Shown piece after piece: positions 13,423-36,148 of a DNA stretch of 55,402 nt (the stretch's first letter is position 1; every line of letters starts with the position of its first letter). A model generated the notes under the pieces. It was not told where the DNA came from and did no database searches. It was given only the letters and a program-made list of their open reading frames with translations. Source of the DNA: a virus. Its lineage: Duplodnaviria > Caudoviricetes. The position numbers were made by a program, and so were the translations under genes. The stretch covers positions 1 to 55,402 of IMG/VR virus record IMGVR_UViG_3300029448_000052. The stretch is one strand, 5' to 3'.

Positions 13423-13500
13423 AACTTCCTCTTTCTACTGGAATATTTTTATTCTACTGTTTTTACATATAGGGTGCAAGTTTCATTTTATCCACTTTAC

Positions 13501-13740
13501 TATATAGGATGGAAACGACAACGAGTGAAAATTTGTTTTTTAACATTTTCCGATATCACCAAAAAATATATATAACTTTCTCTGTCCGCGCGATAATTTT
13601 TGAAAACTTTTTTGTTTTGTTTCAATGCGTTTTACCCCCTATTATAAAAAGTGCGGATATAGCGGATATATTTGTTTTTTACCAGAGCAAACTTGACAGG
13701 CATATTTTGCCAATATATGTTAAACCTTAATAATAATGCG
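13501..13740. promoter_or_regulatory. divergent intergenic control region, possible replication origin
   Basis: AT-rich gap between divergent genes; TTGACA at about 13693; shares motifs with 31503-31652. Confidence 0.45.
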
Positions 13741-13766
13741 TAACCATGTGGAGAAAGGCATGAACA

Positions 13767-14096
13767 ATGACAGTATATATAACACAGGAGATGCGGGGTC
13801 GTGATATTACGGATGCCACAAGTTTCGGAGATATCGAAATATTACTTCCCGCAGGAGAGCAAGCCAGCTACTCTACTCAACCTACTATTAGAAAACTGGG
13901 TAGAAAGCTCGGCAAGTTTACCGACGAAGATTACTTACTTCTTGCAGGAGATCCCGCAGCTATTGCTTTAGCTGCCGCTGTAGCTGCTAGAGCTAATGGC
14001 GGTAGGTTTAAGATGTTGAAGTGGGATAGGCAAGAGGGTAAATACTTCCCTCTCATAGCAGACCTTAACTTTCGTCCAGGAGATAACGATGGTTGA
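13767..14096 (+). CDS. hypothetical protein (replication module)
   Basis: ORF with RBS; DYLLLAGDP...LKWDR. Confidence 0.65.
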   Translation: MTVYITQEMRGRDITDATSFGDIEILLPAGEQASYSTQPTIRKLGRKLGKFTDEDYLLLAGDPAAIALAAAVAARANGGRFKMLKWDRQEGKYFPLIADLNFRPGDNDG

Positions 14097-14640
14097 TTTT
14101 GAAAGTGTGGCAGCTAAACTCAGCACAATTGATGAGTCTGGTTTAAGCCAAGTAAGTAAACTGGCTCAGTTACAATTACAACTTGAGCAGCGTGTTTACG
14201 ATTTAGAAGCTGATCTGAAGCAAGCAAAAATAGATTTAAAACAAGTAGCCGAAGACCAACTTCCAGCAGCAATGGCTGAGCATAACGTAACTGAGTTTAA
14301 ACTAGCTGATGGTTCTAGTATTAGCGTGGCTAAATTCTATAGTGCAAGCATCCCAAAAGATAGATCGGATGAGGCGTTTACTTGGTTAGTGCAAAACGAC
14401 CACGGTGATTTAATTAAAAACCAAGTCGCTACTAATTTTGTACGTGGTCAAGAAGAGCAAGCTGAAAAGTTTGCAAGTGAGTTGGCTGGCCGAGGTATGC
14501 CTGTCAACACAAAAAAGTGGGTGGAACCTATGACTCTTAAGGCTTGGGTTAGGGAAAAAACCGAAGATGGAACAAACATACCACATGATTTGTTTGGTGT
14601 GTTTGTTGGTGAAAAATCTAAAATCACAAGGAGTAAGTAA
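14089..14640 (+). CDS. hypothetical protein (coiled-coil N-terminus, replication module)
   Basis: AFTWL...GDLIKN...TLKAWVRE pattern typical of genes preceding phage SSBs. Confidence 0.65.
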   Translation: MVDFESVAAKLSTIDESGLSQVSKLAQLQLQLEQRVYDLEADLKQAKIDLKQVAEDQLPAAMAEHNVTEFKLADGSSISVAKFYSASIPKDRSDEAFTWLVQNDHGDLIKNQVATNFVRGQEEQAEKFASELAGRGMPVNTKKWVEPMTLKAWVREKTEDGTNIPHDLFGVFVGEKSKITRSK

Positions 14641-15461
14641 TGAGTGAAGGAAAACAAGAAATAGTGCGCGGTGCGTTGGCTGCTAAGAGTAGCACTGATC
14701 TAGCTGTGGCGGCACAGTTTGAAGAGTATAGCAGTGCAGGATTCAGTGAGGTTACTGCTGAAGATTTATCTATACCTTTTATCAGGGTATTGGCACAGCT
14801 AAGTCCACAGGTAAATAAGCGTGATGGTGCCTATGTAGAAGGTGCCGAGGCAGGAATGCTTTTTAATACCGTTTTAAACGAAGTTTACGACGGTGTAGAG
14901 GGTATCCAAGTAGTGCCGTGCCATTATAACCGTAGATTCGTCGAGTGGAAGCCACGTGAGCAGGGTGGGGGTTATGTACAATCGTATGAAACTACCGATC
15001 CGATTGTAAATACTACAACTAAAAATGATGTAGGGCAGGATGTATTACCAGATGGTAATTTACTGAGTAATACAGCGCAGTTTTTTGTTCTATTGATGCA
15101 TCCTGAGTTAGGAGCGCAACGTGCTTTAATAACTATGTCTTCCACACAGTTGAAGAAGGCTAGAAAGTGGATGACACAAGCACAATCTATGACTGGTCAG
15201 GGTAAAAACGGTGTGTACACTCTGCCACTAATGTCACAGGTTTATAAGGTAGGTACAGTTCAAGAGCAGAATGATAAAGGTACATGGTTCGGGTTTGATA
15301 TTACTCGGGTGCGTGGCCTTGACCTTGCAAGCGAGGACGATAAACAACTGTTCGCTACTGCTCTACAGTTTGCAGAATCTATTAAAGCTGGTGATGTGCA
15401 AGTAAAAGAAGACAAATCCGCTAACACAGAAAAAGACGGTGACGACGACATACCGTTTTAG
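14640..15461 (+). CDS. putative single-stranded DNA-binding protein
   Basis: Acidic C-terminal tip DGDDDIPF, the SSB-Ct motif; lies upstream of primase and helicase. Confidence 0.7.
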   Translation: MSEGKQEIVRGALAAKSSTDLAVAAQFEEYSSAGFSEVTAEDLSIPFIRVLAQLSPQVNKRDGAYVEGAEAGMLFNTVLNEVYDGVEGIQVVPCHYNRRFVEWKPREQGGGYVQSYETTDPIVNTTTKNDVGQDVLPDGNLLSNTAQFFVLLMHPELGAQRALITMSSTQLKKARKWMTQAQSMTGQGKNGVYTLPLMSQVYKVGTVQEQNDKGTWFGFDITRVRGLDLASEDDKQLFATALQFAESIKAGDVQVKEDKSANTEKDGDDDIPF

Positions 15462-15572
15462 TTCAACGAGGGGGGTTGATCGCCCTTTCGTTGCGAGAGA
15501 GTAGTTGGCAAAGTTCCAGAAGAAGAGGGTTCACCCCTTCTACTCTCTCACCCTATTTAGCAGGAGGATACG

Positions 15573-17096
15573 ATGTCACTTGCACAAAGATTTTATGATT
15601 TATTTAAAGGCAGCGATATTGCTCACGGCACATATGTCGTAAAGAGCAGTCGTAGCACTGATGGCAAAAAGCAGGGTCAGGCTACAGTTTTGCGTGAGCC
15701 AACTACTGTAGATATGTGGGAAGAACATTTAAAAGGTGGCACAGGATTAGGCATAATACCTATCCGCAGTGATAACCTTTGCCAGTGGGGTGCAATAGAT
15801 ATAGACCAATATGATGTTAGCCATAAAGATTTAGTAACAGTATTAAAAGATAATAAGATACCAGCCGTTGTTGGTAGGACTAAATCAGGTGGAGCGCATA
15901 TCTGGGTATTTTTAACTGAGCCAATTGAAGCTGAAGATGTACAAAGGCGTATGACAGAATTAAGTGCGGCTCTTGGTTATTCGGGTAGTGAAATATTCCC
16001 CAAACAAACGACCATATTAAAAGACCGTGGTGATACAGGTAACTTCTTAAATATGCCTTATCATGGTGGTGATAATTCCACACGTTATGCTTTTAATAAT
16101 GAAGGTGAGGCATTGGGTGCAGAACAATTTTTAGATTACGCACAATCATTTATTCTTACACCAAATAAATTCTTAAAACTTGTTATGAGTTTTGGAACTA
16201 AAGATGGTGTGCTAGAAGAAGGTCCCCCATGTTTGCAGCACCTATGTAGTAAAGGATTTGGCGAAGGCTCACGTAACAATGCTTTATTTAATCTTGGTGT
16301 GTATGCACGAATGTTTGATGAAGAAAATTGGGAAGTGTTAGTTCAGCGATACAATATGGATTACTTACACCCACCCCTCAGTCATAATGAGGTAGGTGTG
16401 GTTATTCGCCAGCTTAAAAAGAAAGATTACTTTTATAAATGCGACGATCAGCCAATAAAGCCCTTCTGCGATAAAGAAATATGTAAGGGCAGGAAGTATG
16501 GTGTTGGTCCAACAGGTATAGGCAATGATATGTCTAGCCTTACAAAAATTGATGGTGACCCACCTATATGGATATTAGATGTAGATGGTGAACGGTTAGA
16601 GCTTTCCACTAATGGGTTAACTAGCCAAGCACAGTTTCAAAAAGAATGTGTTTCACAAATAAATAAATTCCCTGTAGTTGTAAACCAGAGGGCATGGCAG
16701 ACAAGAATACAACTGTTATTGGATAATTTAACTATTATAGAAGTGCCGCCCGATGCCACAATAAAGGGTGAGTTTGAAGATTTACTTCATGCCTTTTGCT
16801 GTGAGAGAGCTAAAGGTGAAGACCGTGAAGATATATTACAAGGTGTTGCTGTTTGGGTAGAGGGCAGGGTGTTTTTCCAAGTAAAAGATATTAAAAAGCA
16901 CTTGTCTGTAAATGATTTTACACATTACAGTTCTAATAAGATCACACTGCGATTACAGAATATAGAAGCAGAAAAGATGTTCTGGCGTGTGAGAAATAAA
17001 GGTGTACATGTTTGGTCGTTACCCCAAGAGTTTTTTCAAGGGGAGGATGTTGATATTCCACTGCCAGACTTACCAGTAGCAGATGGGATTATATAG
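15573..17096 (+). CDS. primase (AEP-like prim-pol with PriCT-like domain)
   Basis: AIDID, TKSGGAHIW and EIFPKQ motifs; GEGSRNNALF. Confidence 0.8.
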   Translation: MSLAQRFYDLFKGSDIAHGTYVVKSSRSTDGKKQGQATVLREPTTVDMWEEHLKGGTGLGIIPIRSDNLCQWGAIDIDQYDVSHKDLVTVLKDNKIPAVVGRTKSGGAHIWVFLTEPIEAEDVQRRMTELSAALGYSGSEIFPKQTTILKDRGDTGNFLNMPYHGGDNSTRYAFNNEGEALGAEQFLDYAQSFILTPNKFLKLVMSFGTKDGVLEEGPPCLQHLCSKGFGEGSRNNALFNLGVYARMFDEENWEVLVQRYNMDYLHPPLSHNEVGVVIRQLKKKDYFYKCDDQPIKPFCDKEICKGRKYGVGPTGIGNDMSSLTKIDGDPPIWILDVDGERLELSTNGLTSQAQFQKECVSQINKFPVVVNQRAWQTRIQLLLDNLTIIEVPPDATIKGEFEDLLHAFCCERAKGEDREDILQGVAVWVEGRVFFQVKDIKKHLSVNDFTHYSSNKITLRLQNIEAEKMFWRVRNKGVHVWSLPQEFFQGEDVDIPLPDLPVADGII

Positions 17097-18613
17097 TGCA
17101 TATTGTACTCGGACCTCCAGGAACAGGTAAGACAACTAAGCTCTTGGATTTAGTTGAACAATACATGCAATCGGGAGTACCGCCAGACCGTATTGGTTAT
17201 TTTGCTTTTACTCGTAGGGCAGCAATAGAAGCTATAGATCGCGCTTGTATTAAGTTCAATTTAACAAAAAAAGAGTTACCGTACTTTCGCACCCTACATA
17301 GTTTAGCTTTTTTCATGTCAGGTATGAAACACTCACAAGTTATGACTGGTGAGAAATACCAAGAAGTTGCTGAATGGTTAAAAATAGGTAAGTTTTTTGG
17401 TGGAGGGGTAGTTGACCAAGGACCATACAAAGATTTCGGGTATGGTGATAAATTCCTTGAAATAATTAACGTATCTCGTATTTTGCGTCAACCATTACGC
17501 CAAGTTTATAATGAAAGTATTGTCCCCTTAAAAACAGATTGGGCAAGAGTAGAATATGTTAGCCGAGGATTGCAGCATTGGAAAAAAGCATACGGCTTAC
17601 AAGATTATGCGGGAATGTTAGAAACTTTTGTAGACCAAGAATTATGCCCACGATTAGAAGTAGTTTTTATTGATGAAGCACAAGATTTATCCCCCCTTCA
17701 GTGGGAGATGGTAAGATTACTAGAGCGAAATAGCCAGATGTGCTATGTCGCTGGAGATGACGACCAAGCCATTTTTCGTTATGCTGGAGCAGACGTAGAT
17801 CATTTTGTAGGACTCCAAGGAGAAGTCACCCTCTTGAATAAGTCCTATCGTATTCCCTCCTTGCACCATGCACTTAGTCACAAAGTTATAAAGCGCATCG
17901 TAGGAAGGCGGGACAAAATCTTTGAACCCAAAGAAGGTGATGGTGGTATGTTCTGGCATAGGCACTCCGAAGAAGTGGATTTAAGTTCGGGTGATTGGCT
18001 GTTACTTAGTCGCACTACTCGTGGCGCACAGCAAATAGAGGAAGAAGTACGCCGAAGAGGACACCTCTATATTTACAATGGTTCAACAAGTATAGATAGT
18101 AAAGTGTTAGAGGCAGTACGCTATTGGGAACATTTACGCGAAGGTAATCGTTTAAATGCAGAACAGGTCAAACTTGTTTACAAACACATGCTTTTGAATA
18201 CTCAGGTGGCTTATGGTTATAAGACTATGCCTGATGGTGATGATTCTAGTTTTTATAGCCTTGAAGAATTACAAAGGGATCATGGTTTAATGCACAGTCA
18301 GCCTTGGGATGTGGGGCTAGGTAAAATAAATGAACGTGATCGCACATATATAAAAGCCTGTTTACGTAAAGGTGAAAGCCTAACTGATACGCCACGTTTA
18401 CGAATATCTACTATTCACTCCTCCAAAGGAGCTCAAGCTACGAATGTTATGCTGTTGACTGATACTATGCGTAGACCCTACAGTATGTGGAGGAAAATAA
18501 ATAACCACGTAGAAGATGAAGCTAGGGTATTTTATGTAGGTTTAACAAGAGCTACAGATAACCTACATTTGATTCACCCGATGTTTAGTCAAGGATACGC
18601 TCTTCCCAGCTGA
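17096..18613 (+). CDS. UvrD/Rep-like SF1 helicase
   Basis: GPPGTGKT, IDEAQD, GDDDQAIF, STIHSSKG, YVGLTRA. Confidence 0.92.
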   Translation: MHIVLGPPGTGKTTKLLDLVEQYMQSGVPPDRIGYFAFTRRAAIEAIDRACIKFNLTKKELPYFRTLHSLAFFMSGMKHSQVMTGEKYQEVAEWLKIGKFFGGGVVDQGPYKDFGYGDKFLEIINVSRILRQPLRQVYNESIVPLKTDWARVEYVSRGLQHWKKAYGLQDYAGMLETFVDQELCPRLEVVFIDEAQDLSPLQWEMVRLLERNSQMCYVAGDDDQAIFRYAGADVDHFVGLQGEVTLLNKSYRIPSLHHALSHKVIKRIVGRRDKIFEPKEGDGGMFWHRHSEEVDLSSGDWLLLSRTTRGAQQIEEEVRRRGHLYIYNGSTSIDSKVLEAVRYWEHLREGNRLNAEQVKLVYKHMLLNTQVAYGYKTMPDGDDSSFYSLEELQRDHGLMHSQPWDVGLGKINERDRTYIKACLRKGESLTDTPRLRISTIHSSKGAQATNVMLLTDTMRRPYSMWRKINNHVEDEARVFYVGLTRATDNLHLIHPMFSQGYALPS

Positions 18614-18686
18614 AAACAAAAGAGTTATCATTTGTTATGGCTTAGTGCATTGTTAGGTTGCTGGTAACAAACAGAAAGGAGCTGCC

Positions 18687-18947
18687 ATGCAAGTGAAGTA
18701 TTTTAATAAAGCGTCTCTACTTGATGCAAACAATGAAGCTATAATATCTGAGCGCAACCGTTCTTTGCGTAACGAAAGCATTGTTGATACTGAAGATGAC
18801 ACTTTATTCCCCATCGTTTTTAGTATGCCACATAACGATGTGGAAATGCGGGTTCAACTTATGCTTGACCCAACAACAAGGGTTTGGTTAGATATGCCTT
18901 TTAAGGCATATGAAGCCTTACCTTCAATAGAATATCCAACACAATAA
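18687..18947 (+). CDS. hypothetical protein
   Basis: Promoter-like motif and AGAAAGGAG RBS upstream. Confidence 0.6.
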   Translation: MQVKYFNKASLLDANNEAIISERNRSLRNESIVDTEDDTLFPIVFSMPHNDVEMRVQLMLDPTTRVWLDMPFKAYEALPSIEYPTQ

Positions 18948-18971
18948 TACTCTAGAAAGGAGTAATTTATA

Positions 18972-20000
18972 ATGGCACATTTAGTTGAGACTATGGCGTA
19001 TGCAGGACAAGTCCCTTGGCACGGTTTAGGAACCGCTGTTGATGGTAATATGTCACCCCAAGAAATGCTGGTTGCGGCTGGTATTGATTGGACAGTTAGT
19101 AAGCGTCCTGCTTATACAGTTGACAAACCCAACTGTTGGAATATTATCGACCCAACTGGTGAGGCTGGTTTTATCCGCGCACCAGATAGCCACTTTCTTG
19201 TGCGGGATAGCGATAACAAAGTGCTTTCGCATTGTGGCGAGGGATATGTACCTTTTCAAAATGCTGAAGTTATGGACTTCTTTAAAAAGTTTACCGATGC
19301 AGGGCATATGACTATGGAAACTGCTGGCAGTTTGAAAGAAGGTAAAGATATATGGGGGTTAGCAAAGTTAACTGATAAGTTCAGCCTTAGTGGTGATGAT
19401 GAAGTTAAGGGTTACTTGCTTTTGAATAATAGCCACCAAGTAGGTAAAGCGATGACTATTATGTTCACACCTATTCGTGTTGTGTGTAACAATACTCTTA
19501 CACAGGCTATGAGTATGGAGGGCAACCGCTTCCGTGTATTACATTTGCAGATGTTCGATGAAGAAATACAGAAAGCCGCTGAAGAGGCTTTGGGTATTAG
19601 TGGTCAACAAATGACCAAGTTCAAAGAGCAGTCTGAGTTCTTGGCAAATAAACGTGCAAAAGAGTTTGATGTTGATAACTTTATTGCAGAGTTGTTCCAA
19701 CCCCACTTACTAATTGAGCGAGCCAAGGCTTCTATAAAAGATGACCTACCACCTCTGCGTGATGAGTTCAAACGTACTGCTGAACTTGTTGAAGAAGCAT
19801 TACACACGAGTCCTGGTGCGAGTATGAAGTCTGCCAAGGGTACTTGGTGGGGTGCGCTCAATGCAGTAACTTATGTTGTAGATCACCAAAAGCGTTCACA
19901 GGCTGAGGGTAATGCTTTGCATTCAGCTTGGTTTGGCTCTGGTGCTAATACTAAACGTAAAGCACTGACTAAGGCTTTGGAGTATGCCGAAGCTGCATAA
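18972..20000 (+). CDS. DUF932-family phage/plasmid protein
   Basis: MAH.VETMAY...PWHGLG, TPIRVVCNNTL, GTWWGALNAVT. Confidence 0.85.
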   Translation: MAHLVETMAYAGQVPWHGLGTAVDGNMSPQEMLVAAGIDWTVSKRPAYTVDKPNCWNIIDPTGEAGFIRAPDSHFLVRDSDNKVLSHCGEGYVPFQNAEVMDFFKKFTDAGHMTMETAGSLKEGKDIWGLAKLTDKFSLSGDDEVKGYLLLNNSHQVGKAMTIMFTPIRVVCNNTLTQAMSMEGNRFRVLHLQMFDEEIQKAAEEALGISGQQMTKFKEQSEFLANKRAKEFDVDNFIAELFQPHLLIERAKASIKDDLPPLRDEFKRTAELVEEALHTSPGASMKSAKGTWWGALNAVTYVVDHQKRSQAEGNALHSAWFGSGANTKRKALTKALEYAEAA

Positions 20001-20080
20001 ATTGACAAAGTAGTTCTTGTCGTAGCATGGTTCGTTAAGTAAAATGAACCATGCTATTTTCCATAGAAAGGGAGATGTAA

Positions 20081-20698
20081 ATGTTCTATGCAATATGTGA
20101 AGGTTTTCCAGGAAGTTCTGGTCCAGCCTACATTGTTTATAAGTTTCCTACGCTAGAATCTATGAAGCCGTGTGAAGCTGTAAATGAATATAGTATTATT
20201 TACAATGGCGATTCGCATAGGCAGCTAATTGATTTCTGCTCTTTAGAAGAGCTAATTGAGATAGCTACCTGTTTGTGTATTGCGTTTACTGGCACGGAAG
20301 AAGTTAAATTTGTTTCTCTCCAACAAGCGGCTGACTATGTCCACTCAGTAGTGGTAAAGAAAGCTAAATTATGGAAACCCGAAAAGGAGTCTGATATGTC
20401 TACTGTTCATGTAGATCAATTTAATAATAAAGCACAGAAGCATGAAGCAGAGGTAAAAGAAACTAAAAAACCTCGCACTCGTTTTAGGAATGATGCTCGT
20501 ATCATTCTGTTAAAAGATACACCTACTGTGCGTGAAGGCACTAATCGTTTTCGTAATATGAAAGTTATTATGGAAAGTGCTACAGTTGGTGAAGCAATAG
20601 CTAAACTTCGCGCACTTACTCCTGCTCCAGGATCTGGGGTGGATATTAAGATAGCATGCGACGCAGGTGTTATAAAACTAGACTGGCAAGAGGAATAG
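20081..20698 (+). CDS. hypothetical protein, with a possible in-frame internal start at 20396
   Basis: RBS hairpin upstream; internal AAGGAG-N6-ATG at 20396. Confidence 0.6.
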   Translation: MFYAICEGFPGSSGPAYIVYKFPTLESMKPCEAVNEYSIIYNGDSHRQLIDFCSLEELIEIATCLCIAFTGTEEVKFVSLQQAADYVHSVVVKKAKLWKPEKESDMSTVHVDQFNNKAQKHEAEVKETKKPRTRFRNDARIILLKDTPTVREGTNRFRNMKVIMESATVGEAIAKLRALTPAPGSGVDIKIACDAGVIKLDWQEE

Positions 20699-20700
20699 CT

Positions 20701-21597
20701 ATGTTACCCGAAGCTGTAGAAAGTTACTTCGGCTGGATAAATGAGCGGCACTCAATATATCAACGCAGATTATTGGGTGCGCCACCACCTTGGACTAATG
20801 ATTCTATCCTGCAAGAATATAAGTTTACAAACCCTTTCCGTGAAAACGATAGGGTAACTGTATGGATGCGTGATAAATGGACAAAGCCAAATGATAACCG
20901 CCCACATGGTGAGATGATATTTAACTGTTGTATGTTTCGTATGGTTGGCACAAGTGAGTTTGCTGAAGAACATGGGTGGGTGGAAGATTTTAACCCACAA
21001 AAAACCAAACACCTTATTGAGTCAAGACTTTCTCTTGGTAAAAGAACATTTACTGGTGCATATATAATCACTAACCAAGGACTCAAAGCACCAAAATCTG
21101 AGGTAGTAGTTGACCACTTCCTTACGCCAATCTGGGAAAATAAAGAAACGCTGGCGAAGATTGCCCAAAAAACGCAGTCGCTCCAAGCGTTACATGAAGC
21201 GATGGGTGCGTATAAAGGGTGGGGAGGAGGAGGTTTTATGTCATACGAGGTGGTTACCGACCTCAACTACACACCTGTACTGGACAAGGCAAAAGACCGT
21301 TTTACTTGGGCTAACGCAGGTCCGGGAGCTATACGAGGAATTAACCGTATCCTCGGAAGAGATTTAAAAAAGGGTATGACCCAGCCTACAGCTAATGAGA
21401 ATATGGTTAGATTATTAAAACATGCACCCTATCATGTTTTAGGACATATCCCACTTAAACAAATAGATATGCGTACTATTGAGCATAGCTTATGTGAGTG
21501 GGATAAATATGAGCGTGTAAGGTTAGGGCAAGGTAGACCAAGAAGTGTTTATCGCCCTACTTTATTAACAGATACACCAAAAGGAGCTGTAGAATGA
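20701..21597 (+). CDS. aGPT-Pplase1 family (amino-acid:DNA transferase-like) thymidine hypermodification enzyme
   Basis: WINERHSIY...PPPWTNDSILQEYKFTNPFRENDRVT, FMSYEVVTDL, GPGAIRG, IEHSLCEWDKY; adjacent to a TS homolog. Confidence 0.85.
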   Translation: MLPEAVESYFGWINERHSIYQRRLLGAPPPWTNDSILQEYKFTNPFRENDRVTVWMRDKWTKPNDNRPHGEMIFNCCMFRMVGTSEFAEEHGWVEDFNPQKTKHLIESRLSLGKRTFTGAYIITNQGLKAPKSEVVVDHFLTPIWENKETLAKIAQKTQSLQALHEAMGAYKGWGGGGFMSYEVVTDLNYTPVLDKAKDRFTWANAGPGAIRGINRILGRDLKKGMTQPTANENMVRLLKHAPYHVLGHIPLKQIDMRTIEHSLCEWDKYERVRLGQGRPRSVYRPTLLTDTPKGAVE

Positions 21598-27810: not shown

Positions 27811-27950
27811 AGAAGATGCGTAAAGAGTTGTTTTTGATAATCTTTTTAGGCATAGTATAATTATAAGTATGGCGGCCTTCTCCATTTTCACATATCTCTC
27901 GGCCGTCATACTTATGTTTTTGTAACAGTTGTCATAGAAAGGACAATGTC

Positions 27951-28196: not shown

Positions 28197-28287
28197 TACA
28201 ACAAGATATTATAGGTATGGTCTATCAATAAGTCCATACCTATATTTAAAAATGTAGTTAAACAACGCTCGTAGAAAGGAGCATGAT

Positions 28288-28668
28288 ATGCAAACTATTG
28301 ATTTATCTGGGTTTACTGGTACTACTGATAAGTATGTCCATCGCCTACCAATGACCCCCGACCTGTTACTTACGGAGGGAGTTAAATACTTTGCCGAAGA
28401 AGCTGGAGCTTACTGGCTTATGGATATTGTGGCTACTGAGTTTGTTCCTAAACTCAGTGACGAAGATTATATTATCTTTATCCAAGTAACTGTTGATAGC
28501 GATAATGGTGCTGTTATTATAGGTAGCGATGGTGATAAGGGTGATGGTCCAAGAATACTGCATACTCGCACTATTCAGTTTACTGACCTACCCACTAACT
28601 CTACTTTCAATTTTATATTGATGGTAGACTACCAAGGTAATACGCTGATGTTACCGAGTGAGTACTAA
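28288..28668 (+). CDS. DUF6876-like protein
   Basis: FTGT..Y...LTEGVKYFAE.AGAYWLMD...LMLPSEY. Confidence 0.7.
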   Translation: MQTIDLSGFTGTTDKYVHRLPMTPDLLLTEGVKYFAEEAGAYWLMDIVATEFVPKLSDEDYIIFIQVTVDSDNGAVIIGSDGDKGDGPRILHTRTIQFTDLPTNSTFNFILMVDYQGNTLMLPSEY

Positions 28669-28882
28669 AATGGTTATCGGTGGTTACTCCATGGAAGATA
28701 AGCAGTTTAACGGTGAGCGTTGTATCACCGTTAAACAGCATGAGTCTGGGTGGTCTTTCTTTTTGCAAGGTGAGGCCGCACAGGATTTTTGTCGTGAATG
28801 GGAAATTTTTAAGTTGACCACGTGTGGTCTTAGCTTTGAAGATTTCTTATACGAAAACGACTATAACCTTTGGCTCCAGTAG
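28658..28882 (+). CDS. hypothetical protein
   Basis: Overlapping ORF in the operon; FFLQGEAA. Confidence 0.55.
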   Translation: MSTKMVIGGYSMEDKQFNGERCITVKQHESGWSFFLQGEAAQDFCREWEIFKLTTCGLSFEDFLYENDYNLWLQ

Positions 28883-28892
28883 GAGGTGCAGT

Positions 28893-29162
28893 ATGTACTC
28901 AGCTCAGGTTTATTATAAATCGCGTGAGGGGCATTCTCTCACGCCTATATATCCTAAAATAGGATTGTTAGAAACTTATCTACATTATACTGGTTTAGTT
29001 GATAATGTTGATGACATCAAAGAAATTGTAATCTTAAAAGGTGGGCGTCGCAAGATGCCCACTATCCACGGTTATTATGACTGGGTTAAAGGTAAACTCA
29101 AATTAGATAAGAGTAAGCCAGTTATGATCCATAACATTTTGTATGGATTAGGCAATGAATGA
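28893..29162 (+). CDS. hypothetical protein
   Basis: AGGAGGT RBS before the ATG at 28893. Confidence 0.55.
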   Translation: MYSAQVYYKSREGHSLTPIYPKIGLLETYLHYTGLVDNVDDIKEIVILKGGRRKMPTIHGYYDWVKGKLKLDKSKPVMIHNILYGLGNE

Positions 29163-29319
29163 AGTCCTTACTATTGCCTACGATTTAAAGCATCAGGTAG
29201 AATGTCTGCCTGATGCTTTATCGCGTTGCTCTAAAGTTGATAAGTACAATACTGATTTAACAATGTTAGAGCGCATTGAAACAATAATAAAAGTTCTTGA
29301 AAGGGGGAGTAATGGGTAA
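29155..29319 (+). CDS. hypothetical 54-aa protein (not in the ORF track)
   Basis: MNEVLTIAYDLKHQ...; overlaps the stop and start of its neighbours. Confidence 0.4.
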   Translation: MNEVLTIAYDLKHQVECLPDALSRCSKVDKYNTDLTMLERIETIIKVLERGSNG

Positions 29320-29530
29320 AGTAAAAGAGTTGTGGATGGTATCTCTTGAAAAGTTGCAAGAAGATTATTGCGAGGCTAATATTACTGAAGAAGAATTTAG
29401 ACGTAGTATGGGTAGCCTTGGAGTAGACTGTATAGATATTGATTGTTATATAATTGAAGCAAAACTATTGAGGGCGGTTAATGAATCATTTAAACCGTTT
29501 CTAAATAAAAATGCCAAACCTGAGATGTGA
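29312..29530 (+). CDS. hypothetical protein
   Basis: GGAG RBS; MGKVKELW. Confidence 0.55.
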   Translation: MGKVKELWMVSLEKLQEDYCEANITEEEFRRSMGSLGVDCIDIDCYIIEAKLLRAVNESFKPFLNKNAKPEM

Positions 29531-29634
29531 TACATGTGGTAATAAAGTAGAAGTCAATGAAGAAGGGCTTCTATTTTGTTCTCGTTGTTGGTTAAATGAA
29601 TATATCAAGCTCTCTAGAAAGGAGACAAGATCTT

Positions 29635-29700
29635 ATGGAACTCACAGATCTAATACCAGACTTGGTTACAATCTTTGTTCTACTCGTAGCATTTTTGTAG
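29635..29700 (+). CDS. 21-aa hydrophobic peptide (not in the ORF track)
   Basis: MELTDLIPDLVTIFVLLVAFL directly after a TCTC-TAGAAAG-GAGA hairpin RBS. Confidence 0.45.
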   Translation: MELTDLIPDLVTIFVLLVAFL

Positions 29701-29709
29701 GTGCGGAAG

Positions 29710-29952
29710 ATGCCTGACCTTGTACCTGTTGGGGATGATATAACCCATATCCCTTGCCCTCAATGTGGGGGTGAGGGGCATGTTGAATATGAGCGTTCTA
29801 TTGTTGATCACGAGCGCGGTGGATATTTAGAGGGTTACTACGATGATTGTGAAGAATGTGGAGGATTTGGCGAAGTAGAGATTGATCCTGACCGCGATTG
29901 TATTGTTGATGAATATGGTAATCTGTACTGGAAAGATGAGCCGAAGTTCTAA
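29710..29952 (+). CDS. DnaJ-type zinc-finger small protein
   Basis: CPQCGGEG...CEECGGFG. Confidence 0.65.
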   Translation: MPDLVPVGDDITHIPCPQCGGEGHVEYERSIVDHERGGYLEGYYDDCEECGGFGEVEIDPDRDCIVDEYGNLYWKDEPKF

Positions 29953-30066
29953 GATAAAATAAAATGTGCCAAGAGTGCAATCTGGCATAAAACTGTGTTA
30001 CTATAATAATAGGCGAGGGGCAGTCTCTTGTCTACCACTTACAACCACTCAAGAAAGGAGTAGGTT

Positions 30067-30534
30067 ATGACTGAGAAAGTTGAAGCTAATGGTGTTGTAT
30101 CTAGTATGTCTGGTGCTGCTACTGCTGTGCCTGAAGATAGCGAGGTAGGTGCTGTATGTACAGACATTGCTGCGCGTGATGAGTTTGACCCTACTAAGCA
30201 TGTTTTACATGAGCAGATTCAAGCACAAGCCCAGCGTATGAGTGATGTGCGCTCTAGGTTTGAGAACCTTGGTGCTGATATGCAACATATCATGACTCTG
30301 CTTTATGGTTTGCAAGAAGAGGTAAAAGCTCTACGCATAGGCCAAGAGAATATGACGGCGGCTGGTAAAACAGTTGATGATGTGTATGTGCGTATAATTG
30401 AAGTTGAAGCCAAAGTTGAAGAGCTGTTTGACTCAACCATTAGCACTAATGATTACGACCCTGATGAGTGGGTGCGTGAAAGTGATATTGGCGACCGTGT
30501 ACGTGAGCTACGCTTTAATGTAGAGGTTGAGTAA
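30067..30534 (+). CDS. hypothetical coiled-coil protein
   Basis: Promoter and AGAAAG hairpin RBS upstream. Confidence 0.6.
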   Translation: MTEKVEANGVVSSMSGAATAVPEDSEVGAVCTDIAARDEFDPTKHVLHEQIQAQAQRMSDVRSRFENLGADMQHIMTLLYGLQEEVKALRIGQENMTAAGKTVDDVYVRIIEVEAKVEELFDSTISTNDYDPDEWVRESDIGDRVRELRFNVEVE

Positions 30535-30809
30535 TGACACGCTACGCTGATGTGCGGAGTGCGGTGACGTACTTTCTCACACTTGATAAGCACCAGCATC
30601 ATCTTGAAAGAGGTGATCAGGCAAATTATGGGGATGACCGCGTAAGCGGTCACCTCTCCTATACCCTAGCTACTATCTGTTTCCGCAGTCCTGAAGCTAG
30701 GTCTATATTAGAAAGTATGATAGCTACCAAAGCCAGAGAGGTAGCAATAGCCGAAGAAAGGACTAAGAAAAATGGCCGATCCAGAAAACTACAAATCGAT
30801 ATCGCTTGA
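30534..30809 (+). CDS. hypothetical protein
   Basis: Coupled start (TAATG). Confidence 0.5.
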   Translation: MTRYADVRSAVTYFLTLDKHQHHLERGDQANYGDDRVSGHLSYTLATICFRSPEARSILESMIATKAREVAIAEERTKKNGRSRKLQIDIA

Positions 30810-31248
30810 CCTTGATACCTATAGCCTGTTGAAAACTGTGGCAGAAGCTGAGTGCCGCAGTATCGGTATGCAAGTACGTTGGATGATTAAACAGGGGATG
30901 GTAAATCCACCGAGTCCTAATGTAACTGCGATGCCTACTGCCTCTGCGACTGTTAAAGCAGTAATCAAACCGCGTGGTAAAATCTTTACTAATAGTGGGA
31001 CTGCACAAATTTTGATGCGGTTTTACGAGACTAATGCTACTCTATCCGTCGCCGATTTCCAGGATATTGGTGTAGAAGATGTGTACAAAACCTTAGTCAA
31101 TATTGAACAAAAAGGCGAGCTACGCAGAATAAGTCATGGTAAACCTGGACTCTGGCATATTACTCCAAGTGGAGTAGCTAAAGCTCGTGAAATTATCAGG
31201 CGTCGTAATGAAGAAGATACTTGTAAGCAAGTATTCAAAACAGGGTGA
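30772..31248 (+). CDS. putative DNA-binding regulator (ribbon-helix-helix-like N-terminus, winged-helix-like C-terminus)
   Basis: YKSISLDLDTYSLLKTVAEAECRSIGMQVRWMI; LRRI..GKPGLWHITPSG. Confidence 0.55.
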   Translation: MADPENYKSISLDLDTYSLLKTVAEAECRSIGMQVRWMIKQGMVNPPSPNVTAMPTASATVKAVIKPRGKIFTNSGTAQILMRFYETNATLSVADFQDIGVEDVYKTLVNIEQKGELRRISHGKPGLWHITPSGVAKAREIIRRRNEEDTCKQVFKTG

Positions 31249-31340
31249 GGTTCCGTACCTCCGTTAAATTTAGTATGGTATTTCTTGATAAATGTGGTAC
31301 TGTATCATACTCATGATAAGTTCCTCCCTTATGAGAACCT

Positions 31341-31372
31341 ACCCCCAATCAGCAATGGTTGGGGGTCTTTTT
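31341..31372 (+). terminator. rho-independent terminator
   Basis: ACCCCCAATCA-GCAA-TGGTTGGGGGT followed by CTTTTT. Confidence 0.75.
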
Positions 31373-31740
31373 ACCTATAAATATGGTTTATGACCCAAAA
31401 AAGAGGCCGCTCAGACGCCGCTCGACTGTCTCTAATGTAGTGGGTAGTAGGGTAGGTACCCCTAAAATAATGACTAATTACCAAGGTTTCTGATTAGTTT
31501 GCTATATAGGAGGTAAATGCGGATAGGAGTAAATTTGTTTTTTATGATTTGATAATATACAATATCTCACTATACACATATATTCAATGAGTTAGCATAT
31601 GAATTACGAAGATTGATCCAATATCTCAGTAAAGTATTTCCGTCCGCGCGATCTCATTTGTGATAAATTTGAATTTAACATAATTCGTTTTTAGACCTAT
31701 TATGCAAAGTACCCCATCAGGTACGAGAGAGAGGAATCAA

Positions 31741-32277
31741 ATGGCTTTAGCAAAAGCAACTCATAAGCCCACGCTTGATGTCGTCGCAAATCCACGCAAA
31801 GAAAAATCCATCACCCCTAAACAAGAAGAATTTGCACGACTTTATGTTTGTGAGGATATTTCACAAACGGAGGCGGCTGTCCGTGCTGGATATTCTGTGA
31901 AATCAGCCCATGCTATTGCCTCCCAATTATTAAATGGACAAAGGTATCCCCATGTAGTAGAGAGGATCCGTGAGTTAAAGCAAGAGTTAGCTCGTAAGTA
32001 TGAGGTCAGTTTTGAGGGTCATGTCAAAAAACTTGCTGAGATCCGTGATGCTGCGATGACAGGAGGAAATTTTGCTGCTGCCGTTGCCGCTGAAAAATCA
32101 CGAGGCCAAGCCGCAGGGATCTATATTGATCGTAAAGAAATCTTGCATGGTAAAATTGATCAGATGAGTCGTGATGAAGTTATGCGAGAAATAAAAAGGA
32201 TACAAGAGGAGTTCCCCGCATTAGCAGTTGTTACTGAGGGTAATATAATGATTGATCATGATGAGGGTGACAATTAA
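31741..32277 (+). CDS. terS: terminase small subunit
   Basis: ITPKQEEFARLYV...QTEAAVRAGYS..SAH.IASQLL. Confidence 0.85.
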   Translation: MALAKATHKPTLDVVANPRKEKSITPKQEEFARLYVCEDISQTEAAVRAGYSVKSAHAIASQLLNGQRYPHVVERIRELKQELARKYEVSFEGHVKKLAEIRDAAMTGGNFAAAVAAEKSRGQAAGIYIDRKEILHGKIDQMSRDEVMREIKRIQEEFPALAVVTEGNIMIDHDEGDN

Positions 32278-32347
32278 AGACTTATCATTGTAAGTCACCT
32301 ATGGCACTATATAATTGTAGCAACAGTCATAGAAAGGACACGTTACG

Positions 32348-32620
32348 ATGAACTACTTTAAACAAACTAACGACGCCGTATTAGACGGCTGGGTTGACTA
32401 TCACGCAATACAGCCAACACACCTTGAGGTCAATGATGACAAGGTGCTATGTTGCCTTGACGATTTGAGGCAAATAACTATTGTTGGTTTTGAGCACCAA
32501 ACGCACGTCATTATTACCAATACCAATAATGATGACGATAAGGTTACTTGCGAGTACTCAACAATAGTTGCTGAGGACACACACCTGTTTGACCTTAAAA
32601 GGTTTTTGCGTGACTACTAA
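32348..32620 (+). CDS. hypothetical early protein
   Basis: Promoter motif and AGAAAG hairpin RBS. Confidence 0.55.
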   Translation: MNYFKQTNDAVLDGWVDYHAIQPTHLEVNDDKVLCCLDDLRQITIVGFEHQTHVIITNTNNDDDKVTCEYSTIVAEDTHLFDLKRFLRDY

Positions 32621-32813
32621 GCCAAAAAAGTTAGGACGTCCTAAGGGGTCAGCCCAGTATACGGACGTCCCAACTATGGTGCATATTGGTGGACGCGAGA
32701 CGCTCCAAAATTTGCACGCTATCCGTGAGGTGTTAGAGGAACAGACAGGTATGGAGGTCACCTACCCTAATGTCGTTAACTACCTTATCAACTTTTACCT
32801 CAAAGAACGGTGA
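32610..32813 (+). CDS. small putative DNA-binding protein
   Basis: KKLGRPKG motif followed by a helical region; probable GTG start. Confidence 0.45.
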   Translation: MTTKPKKLGRPKGSAQYTDVPTMVHIGGRETLQNLHAIREVLEEQTGMEVTYPNVVNYLINFYLKER

Positions 32814-32897
32814 TACAACGGGACAGTAAAAGAGTTATCATTTACTGTCCCTTAGTTTACTTTATAATTATAGCAACACTCACAGAAAGGAGCCGCT

Positions 32898-33113
32898 ATG
32901 ATTAAACCAAAAGCTGAAACCTATGAGTTCAATGATGGTAGATCTCAAACCATATTGGACTTTTCCCGCGTCAATGAAGCATGGCTCGTGTGGCGTCAGG
33001 ATCCCGGAAGTCAGGGTAATGTAAAAATCCACCCTAGTTATGATGAGGCCAAGCGCGATTACGATAACCGCGTTGATGCCATACAAATGATGGAGGCACA
33101 CAATGCTGCATGA
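32898..33113 (+). CDS. hypothetical early protein
   Basis: Promoter motif and hairpin RBS. Confidence 0.55.
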   Translation: MIKPKAETYEFNDGRSQTILDFSRVNEAWLVWRQDPGSQGNVKIHPSYDEAKRDYDNRVDAIQMMEAHNAA

Positions 33114-33291
33114 GTGGACAAAAAAGCTAGGTCAGCAACACTGGTCTATCCCTGGATCTCACACTGGTACTCTTTGTGGGATGCCGATGCTCGGTAACAA
33201 TTATGCAAAGCATATAGATGAGGAAGACAAAACACCTTGTCCGCAGTGTGCTCATCAAGCGCAGTTGTATCGGTTAGATGAGTCAGCTTGA
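33103..33291 (+). CDS. hypothetical protein with His/Cys ligands
   Basis: QH...TLCG...CPQC. Confidence 0.5.
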   Translation: MLHEWTKKLGQQHWSIPGSHTGTLCGMPMLGNNYAKHIDEEDKTPCPQCAHQAQLYRLDESA

Positions 33292-33478
33292 TTACATAGT
33301 ACAGGATACCCAGACGGGCAAAAAGTTCGTCTGGGATTTACGTCGTGTACTGAGAAAAGTTAATGCTGATAGATCAACGTGGCAGCATGAGCAAAAGTAT
33401 AACAAGACCGACTGGACAGAAGGATGGAACCAGTGGGTTGATGGTTATAGGATAGTCGGTTTTATCCGTAACAAATGA
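33278..33478 (+). CDS. hypothetical protein
   Basis: Overlapping ORF in the operon; Trp-rich. Confidence 0.5.
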   Translation: MSQLDYIVQDTQTGKKFVWDLRRVLRKVNADRSTWQHEQKYNKTDWTEGWNQWVDGYRIVGFIRNK

Positions 33479-33560
33479 TAACAAAAGAAGTGTCTTCTAT
33501 TATCTGTAGTGCTACTTTATAATTGTAAAGGCAACAATGCTCGTAGAAAGGAGCTGACTA

Positions 33561-33770
33561 ATGCAACCAGGATTTTTCAATATTGAGGTTTATCATGCCG
33601 CCAGTGATGACTGGCTGTATGAGGGTGGTTTCAAAGATGAGCAAATGGCTCATGAATATGCTGAGGCCGTTCTCTACGACCACCATGTCCGCATTACGCG
33701 TGATGGTGTTAGTGTCTGCTCGGCAAGGCCGTTAACTCGGCTAGAAAAACAACAACTCGGTTTGCGATAG
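33561..33770 (+). CDS. hypothetical early protein
   Basis: Promoter and GCTC-GTAGAAAG-GAGC RBS. Confidence 0.55.
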   Translation: MQPGFFNIEVYHAASDDWLYEGGFKDEQMAHEYAEAVLYDHHVRITRDGVSVCSARPLTRLEKQQLGLR

Positions 33771-33784
33771 AAAGGAGCAGACTA

Positions 33785-34090
33785 ATGATACAGTATGTAG
33801 ATATGAATGATGATGGTAATATGGTGGTTACTAATGAAGACCCCAGTCGCCTCATGTTGTTAACGACTTTGTGGTATACGGAGACCACTATGGTTGATGG
33901 CACTCCGTTTACACCTAACCCTGATGTATACATGGTATCCTGGACAGATGAGTTAAGGCAACGTGCCGAGTTAGCAGGTCGTATCAATGCTCATAATGAG
34001 TGGGCAAGGGAGCAGGAGGGTAGACCAGTTGTCAAGTTTGCCAAGCAACAAGTCGTGCTTATCACGCCTACCACAACGGAGCTGGTGTGA
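33785..34090 (+). CDS. hypothetical protein
   Basis: TAGAAAGGAG RBS. Confidence 0.55.
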   Translation: MIQYVDMNDDGNMVVTNEDPSRLMLLTTLWYTETTMVDGTPFTPNPDVYMVSWTDELRQRAELAGRINAHNEWAREQEGRPVVKFAKQQVVLITPTTTELV

Positions 34091-34171
34091 TGGATGGCAC
34101 GTTAATCTTTTTAATAGTCTGCGATGCAGTGCTTTTGATAGCAATCGGTTTCAAAGTAAAGGAGGAAATGA

Positions 34172-34612
34172 GTGAGTAAACCAGAGTCCACGTTGTGGAA
34201 AAATCTGCGTGAGGGAACCAAAGATCTAGGCGTGTTTTGGACACGTCTAGAGTCTTGGTCTAGTCCTGGAGTACCTGACCTGCATGGCATCTTAGATGGT
34301 CATGCTTTTTGGCTTGAACTTAAAGTCCATAGGTTAAACTCGTTAAATAAAATTGCGCTGCGTCCTCACCAAATTGCTTGGCAGATAAGATATAGCAGAT
34401 ATTCTGGAAACGTCTGGAACTTGGTTGGTCATCCTTCCTCCCGAACTATAAATATATTTCGTGGTGCGAGAGCCATGGAGCTGACAGAAAAGAGGACAAA
34501 AGATGATCCCTTGATACCTGACTGGAGTTCGGGGATTCCTTACGATTGGACGGGTGCCATCAATCATATTCTATCATCATCTCGTCCCATCATAAAGGAG
34601 GAAGAGCTCTAG
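34172..34612 (+). CDS. PD-(D/E)XK nuclease, Holliday-junction resolvase / VRR-NUC-like
   Basis: PESTLW...RLES...GVPDL...WLELK...LRPHQIAW. Confidence 0.8.
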   Translation: MSKPESTLWKNLREGTKDLGVFWTRLESWSSPGVPDLHGILDGHAFWLELKVHRLNSLNKIALRPHQIAWQIRYSRYSGNVWNLVGHPSSRTINIFRGARAMELTEKRTKDDPLIPDWSSGIPYDWTGAINHILSSSRPIIKEEEL

Positions 34613-34843
34613 TTTCGTCATCAATTATCCTCGGTCTAAAGTCAAATCATCAATCTTCCTCAATCATTTTCCATTGACGATTTACGAGGATTCGCGAGGT
34701 ACGATCTCTTGACGATGATTGATGATGACAATAATATTTAATGATATTTAATGATAATTAAAGACTTGTCAATAAAACTCGGCCATGCTATTCTAACATC
34801 ATAAGCAATGGTGCTTATGGAGATGTCGTAGAAAGGACATGTC

Positions 34844-35260
34844 ATGACTGTAAAAACTGCTAAAAAATCAACTGCTAAAACTGTCGTTAAATCTGCTGAG
34901 TTAGTGGTCACTGATAAAGAAATCACCTATCCAGAAATCTGGGCATTTATCCAGGAGCATGCTGGTGGCAATGAGGCTAACGTCAAAATTGTGCCTCTTG
35001 ACAATGTTGACTTGGCAAGCGCAACGCCTGTCCCGTTTGGCTATGGTGGCAAGACAGGAGGCGTTCGTCAGGTTATACAAGATTGGATGCTTAAAGGTGT
35101 TGATGGTGATTTGTCGCTAAAAGCCTCTCTTAATAAAGCGGCACCATTAGGACACTCGCGTAAAAAGCCTGTCTGCTTACATGCTTTGATGCATGGGGGA
35201 TACAGCCCGTCCAGCAAATACTGGATGACACCATTCGTCAAACTTGTAGTCCAAGGCTAA
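34844..35260 (+). CDS. hypothetical protein, paralog A
   Basis: Has its own promoter, hairpin RBS and terminator; colinear with 35666..36112. Confidence 0.8.
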   Translation: MTVKTAKKSTAKTVVKSAELVVTDKEITYPEIWAFIQEHAGGNEANVKIVPLDNVDLASATPVPFGYGGKTGGVRQVIQDWMLKGVDGDLSLKASLNKAAPLGHSRKKPVCLHALMHGGYSPSSKYWMTPFVKLVVQG

Positions 35261-35266
35261 CATAGA

Positions 35267-35293
35267 GGGGGACGTCGGTTGGCGTCCCCTTTT
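35267..35293 (+). terminator. rho-independent terminator
   Basis: GGGGACGTC-GGTT-GGCGTCCCC followed by TTTT. Confidence 0.7.
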
Positions 35294-35554
35294 ACCGAGG
35301 AACCATGCTTGAGGAAGAGGGATGATGATTCCCTTTGCCCGAGGAAGACTTCCTATATAGGCATTAGTCTATATATATCATGTCATCATCAATCTTTCTC
35401 TAATAAGTTTTGATGAGTTTTGAGGATTTAACATTTTAAAATGAGCATGGTCACGAAAACTCAACTGCTACACTTTGTAAAAAACAAATAGCAAAGGGTT
35501 AAAAATGTGGTTGTTAATTTTTGCACTAATAGTGCTGGGTTTTTATGGCCTACT

Positions 35555-35611
35555 AAAAAAGTAAAAATAAATAAAAATAAGTATTGTGCGCGACGCTAAA
35601 GTGTGCATAAT
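35555..35611 (+). promoter_or_regulatory. sigma70-like promoter with A-tract UP element
   Basis: A-tracts at 35555-35580, TTGTGC, extended -10 TGTG-CATAAT. Confidence 0.5.
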
Positions 35612-35665
35612 AAAAATTGTAGCCGCTACTGGCTACCGCATTTAACCGTAGAAAGGGTTTATAAA

Positions 35666-36112: not shown

Positions 36113-36148
36113 CCCAGCGTTGGGGGTACTAGGGTACCCCCAGCCACT

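Follow-up and report, generated by a model that had tools for sequence, protein, structure and literature searches.

An RNA hairpin with an AGAAAG loop lies over the ribosome-binding sites of early and middle genes in an HTVC023P-type marine phage lineage

Why do so many early and middle genes of one phage carry a small hairpin directly over their ribosome-binding sites (RBS), and what could read it? The question is raised by a viral contig from IMG/VR (record IMGVR_UViG_3300029448_000052), whose whole stretch of 55,402 nucleotides we call the window. A first-pass annotation had noticed short stems closing an AGAAAG loop in front of these genes and had proposed that they form an operator for an RNA-binding protein. 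Our results confirmed that the module is real and lies beyond chance or base composition: it is a short RNA hairpin under selection, with a covarying stem of 3-6 bp and a loop of 7-9 nt. The hairpin is conserved, and its role is probably regulatory. We favour, with a probability of roughly one half, the interpretation that it is a cis-acting structured RBS of the early and middle genes of the HTVC023P-type marine lineage.

All the sites listed in the first-pass annotation were found in their places. Thirteen sites of the window, 12 on the plus strand and one on the minus strand, share the same architecture, namely a contiguous stem of 3-5 bp whose 5' arm is followed by a spacer of 1-3 nt, the AGAAAG hexamer and the 3' arm (Table 1). 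Three further sites are loose variants, one with a larger loop, one with a single C.A mismatch and one without a local stem. All of them are located within 13.4-35.7 kb on the sense strand of the downstream gene, including the only minus-strand gene, and the ATG follows 8-10 nt downstream of the last G of AGAAAG. The heptamer AGAAAGG occurs 18 times in the window: 16 copies are on the plus strand, all of them between 13752 and 35650, and 2 are on the minus strand. In 100 shuffles its mean count was 8.6 and its maximum 16, and 18 copies were never reached.

The same module is present in 80 related IMG/VR loci with DNA polymerases that are 69-99% identical. When the window and these loci were taken together, a stem of at least 3 bp was found at 483 of the 677 plus-strand copies of AGAAAGG versus 25 of the 103 copies on the other strand. 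For a permutation test we used 392 unique sites with AGAAAG and an ATG, selected blind to their stems; 53% had a stem of at least 4 bp, compared with 16% (maximum 20%) after 200 permutations of the 5' halves. Congruently, in a random 150-site alignment the covariation score of the six-pair helix was 0.463 against 0.226 ± 0.015 for shuffled alignments, with none of 500 shuffles reaching it, and controls in which the helix was slid scored at most 0.233. The fourth stem pair in this alignment was composed of AU (34), UA (28), GC (24) and CG (14), and at the orthologous sites of the DUF932 gene the paired arms differ between relatives. Shuffles, permutation and covariation together rule out chance or base composition as the source of the motif. 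They also agree with the original claim of covarying paired stems, at the RNA level, over the RBS; a lack of covariation across homologs had been named as the finding that would speak against it, and covariation was present.

The geometry of the hairpin was equally regular. Of the 478 sites that have a stem of at least 3 bp and a nearby ATG, 381 place the ATG 8-10 nt downstream of the last G. The spacer is most often 2 nt long (348 sites), less often 1 nt (95) or 3 nt (35), which gives loops of 7-9 nt. Position -2 is a purine in 77% of these sites (G 42%, A 35%) and position -1 is a U in 54%. A covariance model built from the relatives only and then run on the window recovered 7 of its sites at E <= 0.022, all on the plus strand between 18.9 and 35.7 kb. 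In fold predictions at 37 °C within 76-nt contexts, the mean base-pair probability of the hairpin was at least 0.66 at 11 of 14 sites, and the AGAAAG loop was predicted to be unpaired with a probability of at least 0.78 at 13 of 14. Predicted hairpin energies ranged from -2.0 to -9.2 kcal/mol at 37 °C and from -5.0 to -14.3 kcal/mol at 15 °C. Unbiased scans for hairpins before gene starts returned AGAAAG as the loop hexamer 159 and 199 times, with at most 38 occurrences for its register shifts and at most 21 for unrelated hexamers. The most frequent one-letter loop variant was AGAAGG (10), which would retain a G.U pair with the 16S rRNA tail considered next.

The sequence (U)AGAAAGGAG(G) is exactly complementary to ...CCUCCUUUCU(A)-3', a 16S rRNA end published for many bacteria that are not of the E. 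coli type. Among published tails, (U)AGAAAGGAG complements ...CUCCUUUCU(A)-3' and UAGAAAGGAGG complements CCUCCUUUCUA, and the U that is frequent at position -1 complements the terminal A of a UUUCUA tail. Mature or genomic 16S 3' ends of the form GAUCACCUCCUUUCU(A) are given for Listeria, Streptococcus, Neisseria, Deinococcus and B. subtilis (PMC6288834, Table 1; PMC6107228), while in enterobacteria the 16S rRNA ends in CCUCCUUA instead (PMC6288834; PMC6107228); AGAAAGGAGGT serves as a working Shine-Dalgarno (SD) consensus for lactococcal phages (PMC8050962). Because the loop is complementary to the 16S tail, what had looked like a conserved loop is probably a 5' extension of the SD. With a tail of the published UUUCUA type, predicted duplexes range from -9.7 to -16.5 kcal/mol for the 15 hairpin-type RBS and from -5.6 to -10.4 kcal/mol for the RBS of late genes (n = 13). 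The first-pass annotation had argued that the element must be more than an RBS since the stem persists where the SD is degraded. That argument is not supported, as AGAAAGG with its frequent preceding U is itself complementary to a CCUUUCU(A)-3' tail; even where GGAC, GGGTT or GGCAT follows, 7-8 nt can still pair with such a tail, in predicted duplexes of -9.7 to -11.6 kcal/mol.

These properties suggest how a structured RBS might operate. The 5' arm of the stem (CUC, CUCC and similar) would act as an internal mimic of the anti-SD that masks the GGAG core, and the loop would display the 5' half of a 9-10 nt SD. The free 3' end of 16S rRNA could then nucleate on the loop as a toehold and go on to displace the 5' arm, with the long complementarity paying the cost of opening the hairpin. 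The benefit might be a strong, context-insulated capture of the 30S subunit on very short leaders, because many sites lie only a few nucleotides after a sigma70-like promoter. Such RBS would form a class apart from the late genes with their plain AGGAGA, and class-specific timing could follow. That the loop can have 7, 8 or 9 nt and the stem a variable length is more easily reconciled with an RNA partner that pairs with it than with a protein that needs a loop of fixed shape.

The masking of the core SD by a pyrimidine stretch is also what fourU and ROSE elements do, and a related explanation is an RNA thermometer or cold gate, in which GGAG would be masked at low sea temperature and would melt in warmer water, tuning early translation. 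The predicted stability of the hairpin about doubles from 37 °C to 15 °C, in line with such a gate. However, a thermometer does not require a conserved loop, the exposed toehold of 6-7 nt would admit the 30S subunit at any temperature, and nothing ties the genes concerned to temperature, which makes this explanation very improbable.

The module is restricted to one class of genes. In five full-length relatives (51-62 kb) all 30 covariance-model matches at E <= 0.05 lie on the gene strand and within ±10 kb of the DNA polymerase gene, and there is no match in the remaining 30-40 kb, the structural region included. Since the model was trained on sites from DNA-polymerase regions, the informative part of this result is the absence elsewhere. 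The structural region of the window likewise has no match below E 0.1, and its open reading frames (ORFs) with intergenic space carry (A/T)AGGAGA without AGAAAG. Two more claims of the original description thus hold: the module marks early and middle genes and is conserved in relatives, as seen in the 80 related loci, and it is absent before structural genes, both in the window and in the five full-length relatives.

The module is also restricted to one lineage. The window, a 55.4-kb contig with an estimated completeness of 94%, encodes a large terminase, a portal, tail proteins, a primase, two helicases and a family A DNA polymerase, and by this polymerase its closest named phages are 023Pt_psg01, DSL-LC04 and the Pelagibacter phages HTVC027P and HTVC023P (50-56% identity). 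HTVC023P-type phages are described as a widespread marine lineage with genomes of ~59 kb, a G+C content of 42 ± 6% and, in some clades, hypermodification genes consisting of TS plus aG/PT-PPlase (PMC9599517); the window fits this description. In the outgroups HTVC023P and 023Pt_psg01 the hairpin is largely missing. The latter has three plain AGAAAGGA RBS at the usual spacing to the ATG, and a hairpin without a spacer accompanies one of the three; the sequence thus serves as an RBS even where the standard hairpin is missing. A scan of IMG/VR with one 14-mer version of the motif gave 117 stretches, 79 of which were analysed. Twenty-three of these loci had at least 3 hairpin sites and all of them share proteins with the window; 34 loci that share the 14-mer but no protein with the window had 0-2 sites each.

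Several observations weigh against a purely ribosomal explanation. The 16S tail was taken from papers on other bacteria. All six loop letters are nearly invariant; ordinary SDs are degenerate, and plain SD pairing leaves such constancy unexplained. Neither does it account for the purine preference at position -2, for the restriction to early and middle genes, or for the restriction to one phage lineage that is apparent from the two cultured or assembled outgroups, mostly without the hairpin, and from the 34 unrelated loci. In addition, RNAalifold found no consensus pairs in the unbiased 150-site alignment, a negative result that we attribute to the short stems, to the loop of 8 nt and to a share of rows, about one third, in which the site is either not an RBS or out of register (spacer-1 and spacer-3).

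Some of these points would be met by a reader acting in trans. Under this explanation the hairpin with its AGAAAG loop would be the operator or target of an RNA-binding repressor or an endoribonuclease, of phage or host origin, that shuts off or activates the whole early/middle class at a set time, like T4 RegA/RegB or an iron-responsive-element regulon. As the loop is at once SD sequence, such a factor could compete directly with the 30S subunit. The confinement of the motif to one lineage is in agreement with it, and so is its class-specific distribution, with 30 of 30 matches near the DNA polymerase gene and none in the 36-40 kb of structural region in the five full-length relatives. A near-invariant loop on variable stems is typical of protein-bound hairpins, and lineage-restricted genes without an assigned function exist, among them two basic paralogs. 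Yet loop and stem lengths vary, no recognisable RNA-binding or RNase domain was present in the scanned proteins, and it would be left to coincidence that the loop matches the exact complement of a 16S tail, unless the factor had evolved to recognise an SD already in place. We regard a trans-acting factor as a less likely alternative.

The candidate binders proposed in the first-pass annotation, paralogs A and B and the product of 20081..20698, did not gain from our searches. Pfam was run on 30 early/middle and large proteins of the window and PHROGs on 30, the two sets overlapping, and none of these proteins showed a known RNA-binding domain. Paralogs A (34844-35260) and B (35666-36112), both on the plus strand just upstream of the large terminase gene and each behind a hairpin RBS, are 61% identical and have pI values of 9.5 and 10.0. 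By tblastn at 1e-4, a test that can miss fast-evolving proteins, they occur in 21 of 23 relatives with full flanks and were not detected in the first 27 kb of the two outgroups; the family has 207 matches in metagenome proteins, none with a name. The AlphaFold model of paralog A is confident (pLDDT 85.1, pTM 0.77). Foldseek gave no match for it at E <= 0.001 in either the PDB or BFVD, where the best E values were 1.8 and 1.0; this lack of structural neighbours counts against the trans reading, although in itself it neither supports nor excludes RNA binding. The 205-aa protein encoded at 20081-20698 was detected in 18 of the 23 relatives at ~39% identity, has no family in Pfam or PHROGs, and matched only viral clusters without names, below 0.9, in the ESM Atlas. 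Another small protein of this region (26808-27092, plus strand; 94 aa, pI 9.8) is very basic and carries an NrdR-type zinc ribbon (E 2e-11) without an ATP-cone; it is present in 9 of the 23 relatives. Judged by their distribution in this tblastn test, neither of the last two looks like a universal partner. Of the original operator proposal, an RNA-level, strand-specific hairpin that marks a gene class is retained; the RNA-binding protein was not found, and the features of boxB or CsrA sites are lacking.

A further reading, of lower probability, is that the hairpin-displayed SD is a regulon-wide address label. It would be read either by a phage factor that turns the early/middle set on or off as a whole, with paralogs A and B as candidates, or by a particular state of the host ribosome.

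We also studied the position of the hairpin relative to putative promoters, called here as consensus matches only. A -10-like hexamer lies within 40 nt of 169 of 322 unique sites, and at 85 of these it ends 10-15 nt before the stem, so that the hairpin would come within the first nucleotides of the mRNA, at about +3 to +8. At least 41 nt separate the site from the upstream ORF in 240 of the 322. In the window, the sites at 32326, 32879, 33539 and 20058 are examples of the promoter-proximal arrangement. Another 64 sites are at most 15 nt from the upstream stop or overlap it. E. coli and B. subtilis have both 5'-terminal stem-loops and SD-like sequences that stabilise mRNA from its 5' end, and a hairpin near the 5' end next to a very strong 30S site could protect the messenger from 5'-end-dependent decay by RNase E, RNase J or RppH. 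The 85 sites at promoter-proximal distance and the 240 that stand clear of an upstream ORF fit such a stabiliser. On the other hand, the module also occurs without a nearby promoter, as at the intercistronic site 18948 and at 30748 and 33759, which overlap the ends of upstream ORFs, and more generally at the 64 sites close to a stop; the promoter calls are consensus matches, and stabilisation alone would not need an invariant loop. We consider stabilisation as the sole role unlikely, but it may act together with a cis or a trans mode of reading.

Upstream of some of these hexamers we observed a second repeat, AAAGA(C/G)TT(A/G)TCA, with four exact copies, all on the plus strand (18619-18630, 32276-32287, 32829-32840 and 34760-34771). 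From the start of the copy to the AGAAAG-type RBS that follows, the distance is 54-55 nt for three of them and 70 nt for the fourth, and each lies upstream of the -10-like hexamer. When one mismatch was allowed, 4 matches were reached in 5 of 100 shuffles. One class of promoters may use the repeat as a -35/UP element or as an activator box.

The module might instead work at the level of DNA, as a promoter for a phage RNA polymerase (an N4-type hairpin or T7-type) or as a recombination cassette resembling PeSL. Repeats of ~22 nt that are nearly identical, such as 28263-28286 and 33535-33558, could promote the shuffling of small genes, and most small early genes are found in under half of the 23 relatives. 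Against this, the element keeps a fixed distance of 8-10 nt to the start codon and follows the strand of the gene, including the single minus-strand gene, and its arms vary in sequence while their complementarity holds, contrary to what a sequence-specific DNA site would show. Family searches revealed no RNA polymerase gene among the large ORFs of the window, and with the upstream arm variable in sequence we rejected the N4- or T7-type promoter. A DNA-level role is thus hardly credible.

Table 1. Hairpin and variant RBS of the AGAAAG type in the window. Stems and loops are written as 5' arm, spacer, hexamer and 3' arm; E values refer to the covariance model built from relatives.
Position	Strand	RBS element	Downstream gene	Context	Model match
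13426..13443	-	variant hairpin TTCC-AGT-AGAAAG-A-GGAA	SNF2-type helicase gene, 11977-13422		weak, 11.3 bits, E 1.4
13745..13762	+	hairpin CATGT-GG-AGAAAG-GCATG	13767-14096 (Pam3_gp32-like)	sigma70-like promoter 13693-13721	
18673..18681	+	AGAAAGGAG without local stem	86-aa gene, 18687-18947		
18948..18964	+	hairpin TACTC-T-AGAAAG-GAGTA	DUF932 gene, 18972-20000	intercistronic, no promoter	E 0.022
20058..20075	+	hairpin TTTCC-AT-AGAAAG-GGAGA	205-aa gene, 20081-20698		E 5.5e-5
27929..27946	+	hairpin TTGTC-AT-AGAAAG-GACAA	27951-28196		E 7.2e-5
28267..28282	+	hairpin GCTC-GT-AGAAAG-GAGC	28288-28668 (DUF6876)		E 5.4e-6
29611..29625	+	hairpin TCTC-T-AGAAAG-GAGA	conserved ~21-aa mini-ORF, 29635-29700		
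30047..30061	+	hairpin ACTC-A-AGAAAG-GAGT	30067-30534		
30748..30765	+	imperfect hairpin TAGCC-GA-AGAAAG-GACTA (one C.A mismatch)	30772-31248	inside the end of the upstream ORF	E 0.29
32326..32339	+	hairpin GTC-AT-AGAAAG-GAC	32348-32620	starts 10 nt past TATAAT (promoter-like 32288-32315)	E 0.52
32879..32892	+	hairpin CTC-AC-AGAAAG-GAG	32898-33113	starts 10 nt past TATAAT (promoter-like 32841-32868)	E 0.21
33539..33554	+	hairpin GCTC-GT-AGAAAG-GAGC	33561-33770		E 1.7e-5
33759..33783	+	loose variant, 7-bp stem GGTTTGC/GCAGACT, 11-nt loop with AGAAAGGA	33785-34090		
34823..34840	+	hairpin ATGTC-GT-AGAAAG-GACAT	paralog A, 34844-35260		E 2.1e-4
35644..35659	+	hairpin AACC-GT-AGAAAG-GGTT	paralog B, 35666-36112		E 1.7e-5

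From ~13.5 kb onwards all genes of the window but one point rightward, and their order runs from replication and modification through many small ORFs (27.9-36 kb) to packaging and structural genes, wrapping round to 11.5 kb. The mini-ORF behind the hairpin at 29611 has 21 codons on the plus strand and encodes a hydrophobic peptide, MELTDLIPDLVTIFVLLVAFL; relatives have an ORF of 18-23 codons with a similar start. Directly after it, both the window (29701-29952, plus strand) and one relative, L007, have an ORF with two CxxCGG(E/F)G zinc-finger-like motifs. Longer hairpins with stems of 6-9 bp stand immediately upstream of three RBS hairpins on the plus strand (20031-20058, 28205-28236 and 35619-35636) and may be terminators or attenuators of the preceding unit.

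A thymidine hypermodification module occupies 20656-23905 and 26278-26811 on the plus strand. It comprises a 5-hmdU DNA kinase helical domain (E 1.7e-50), a group-1 glycosyltransferase, a thymidylate-synthase-like protein (PHROG E 2.3e-102) and an HD-type dNTPase-like protein, and it matches the module published for some HTVC023P-type clades (PMC9599517). In the head-gene region, a full-length Rfam match to the Mu-gpT-DE RNA (RF03012; 47673-47725, plus strand; 71.8 bits against a gathering score of 49, E 8.6e-15) sits in the 113-nt gap between a 302-aa ORF (46701-47609) and a 327-aa ORF (47723-48706). The window has no tRNA genes. Megablast of positions 13000-36000 against GenBank phages gave no match, and a scan of bacterial genomes with the DNA polymerase, aimed at a host or prophage, yielded 55 pattern matches and no relative. 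Part of the stretch is present in 20 of the 24 sequencing runs listed, all of them Logan contigs; the only RNA run among them showed no molecule ends over 16500-36400, and in contig form it would not reveal transcripts or cleavage.

The motif offers a sequence signature that separates early and middle from late genes in a lineage about whose regulation almost nothing is known. It predicts the starts of transcription units and the real start codons of many ORFans, including the conserved mini-ORF of ~20 aa. If the toehold mechanism holds, the module would be a natural, repeated case in which a local hairpin, and not the sequence around it, decides how accessible an SD is, and it predicts a UUUCU-type 16S tail in the host. 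If a factor in trans reads the motif, it would define a new phage translational regulon. As an address label, it would mean that an abundant ocean phage lineage has a translational timing system without a described counterpart.

Finally, we compared the module with known systems. At the gathering threshold Rfam gave no match at the sites, and at E <= 10 over 13300-36200 it returned six unrelated weak matches, none of them at the motif. The lambda boxB element consists of a 5-bp stem with a GNRA-like loop of 5 nt, lies next to boxA and away from the RBS, and occurs once per early operon. The module resembles it in having a short stem and a purine-rich, GAAA-containing loop in early transcripts; we rejected N-type antitermination because here the loops measure 7-9 nt, lie 8-10 nt before start codons and number ~15 per genome. 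A CsrA/RsmA site, which presents GGA in a hairpin loop, was rejected as well, since here the GGA spans the loop-stem junction and the 3' arm, and no CsrA domain occurs in the 30 proteins scanned with Pfam.

Phage translational operators such as the T4 gp43 operator hairpin, the MS2/PP7 coat-protein hairpins and the T4 RegA sites share with the module a small hairpin located on the RBS or next to it. In T4, the operator of gene 43 combines a stem of 5 bp with a loop of 8 nt, and many early genes are under the control of RegA. The operators for gp43 and the coat proteins each occur at one site only, and the RegA sites lack structure. The module differs from them in its loop of 7-9 nt, and no cognate protein was found among the proteins scanned. 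The targets of T4 RegB/S1 mark the SDs of early mRNAs as a class, leading to their inactivation, and consist of a single-stranded 11-nt site that opens with GGA and becomes A-rich towards its 3' side (PMC1702504). In the module the A-rich part is instead 5' of GGA and the GGA is base-paired, so a RegB target was discarded. PeSL cassettes of T4-like phages are repeated, with sigma70-like promoters before small early ORFans, and their stem-loops are GC-rich transcription terminators around -35/-10 boxes (PMC2839356); our stems of 3-6 bp are AU/GC-mixed, lie downstream of the -10 box and sit on the RBS, which led us to reject this cassette too.

Searches of the literature on HTVC023P-type phages and on phage AGAAAGGAG, which left supplementary files aside, brought up no description of the motif, and in the main text of PMC9599517 the words Shine-Dalgarno and promoter are both absent. 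Nor did these searches turn up a hairpin combined with an extended SD that recurs ~15 times per genome and is confined, in a widespread marine lineage, to early and middle genes; extended SDs that pair with the entire 16S tail and hairpins that mask the SD come nearest. SD-sequestering hairpins, such as RNA thermometers and riboswitch platforms, share the short pyrimidine stretch that pairs with GGAG just before the start codon; they have no invariant loop and are usually single loci, whereas here the loop is part of the SD and ~15 genes per genome carry it. Extended SDs of the AGAAAGGAGG type in Firmicutes and their phages have the same sequence and start-codon distance and are complementary to CCUCCUUUCU(A) (PMC6288834, PMC6107228, PMC8050962). 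In contrast to these, the SD described here is enclosed in a covarying hairpin that masks its core and is limited to one temporal class and one lineage. Flavobacteriales likewise have an extended SD at rpsU, and that of Flavobacterium is a high-information address for one class of ribosomes (PMC9976891).

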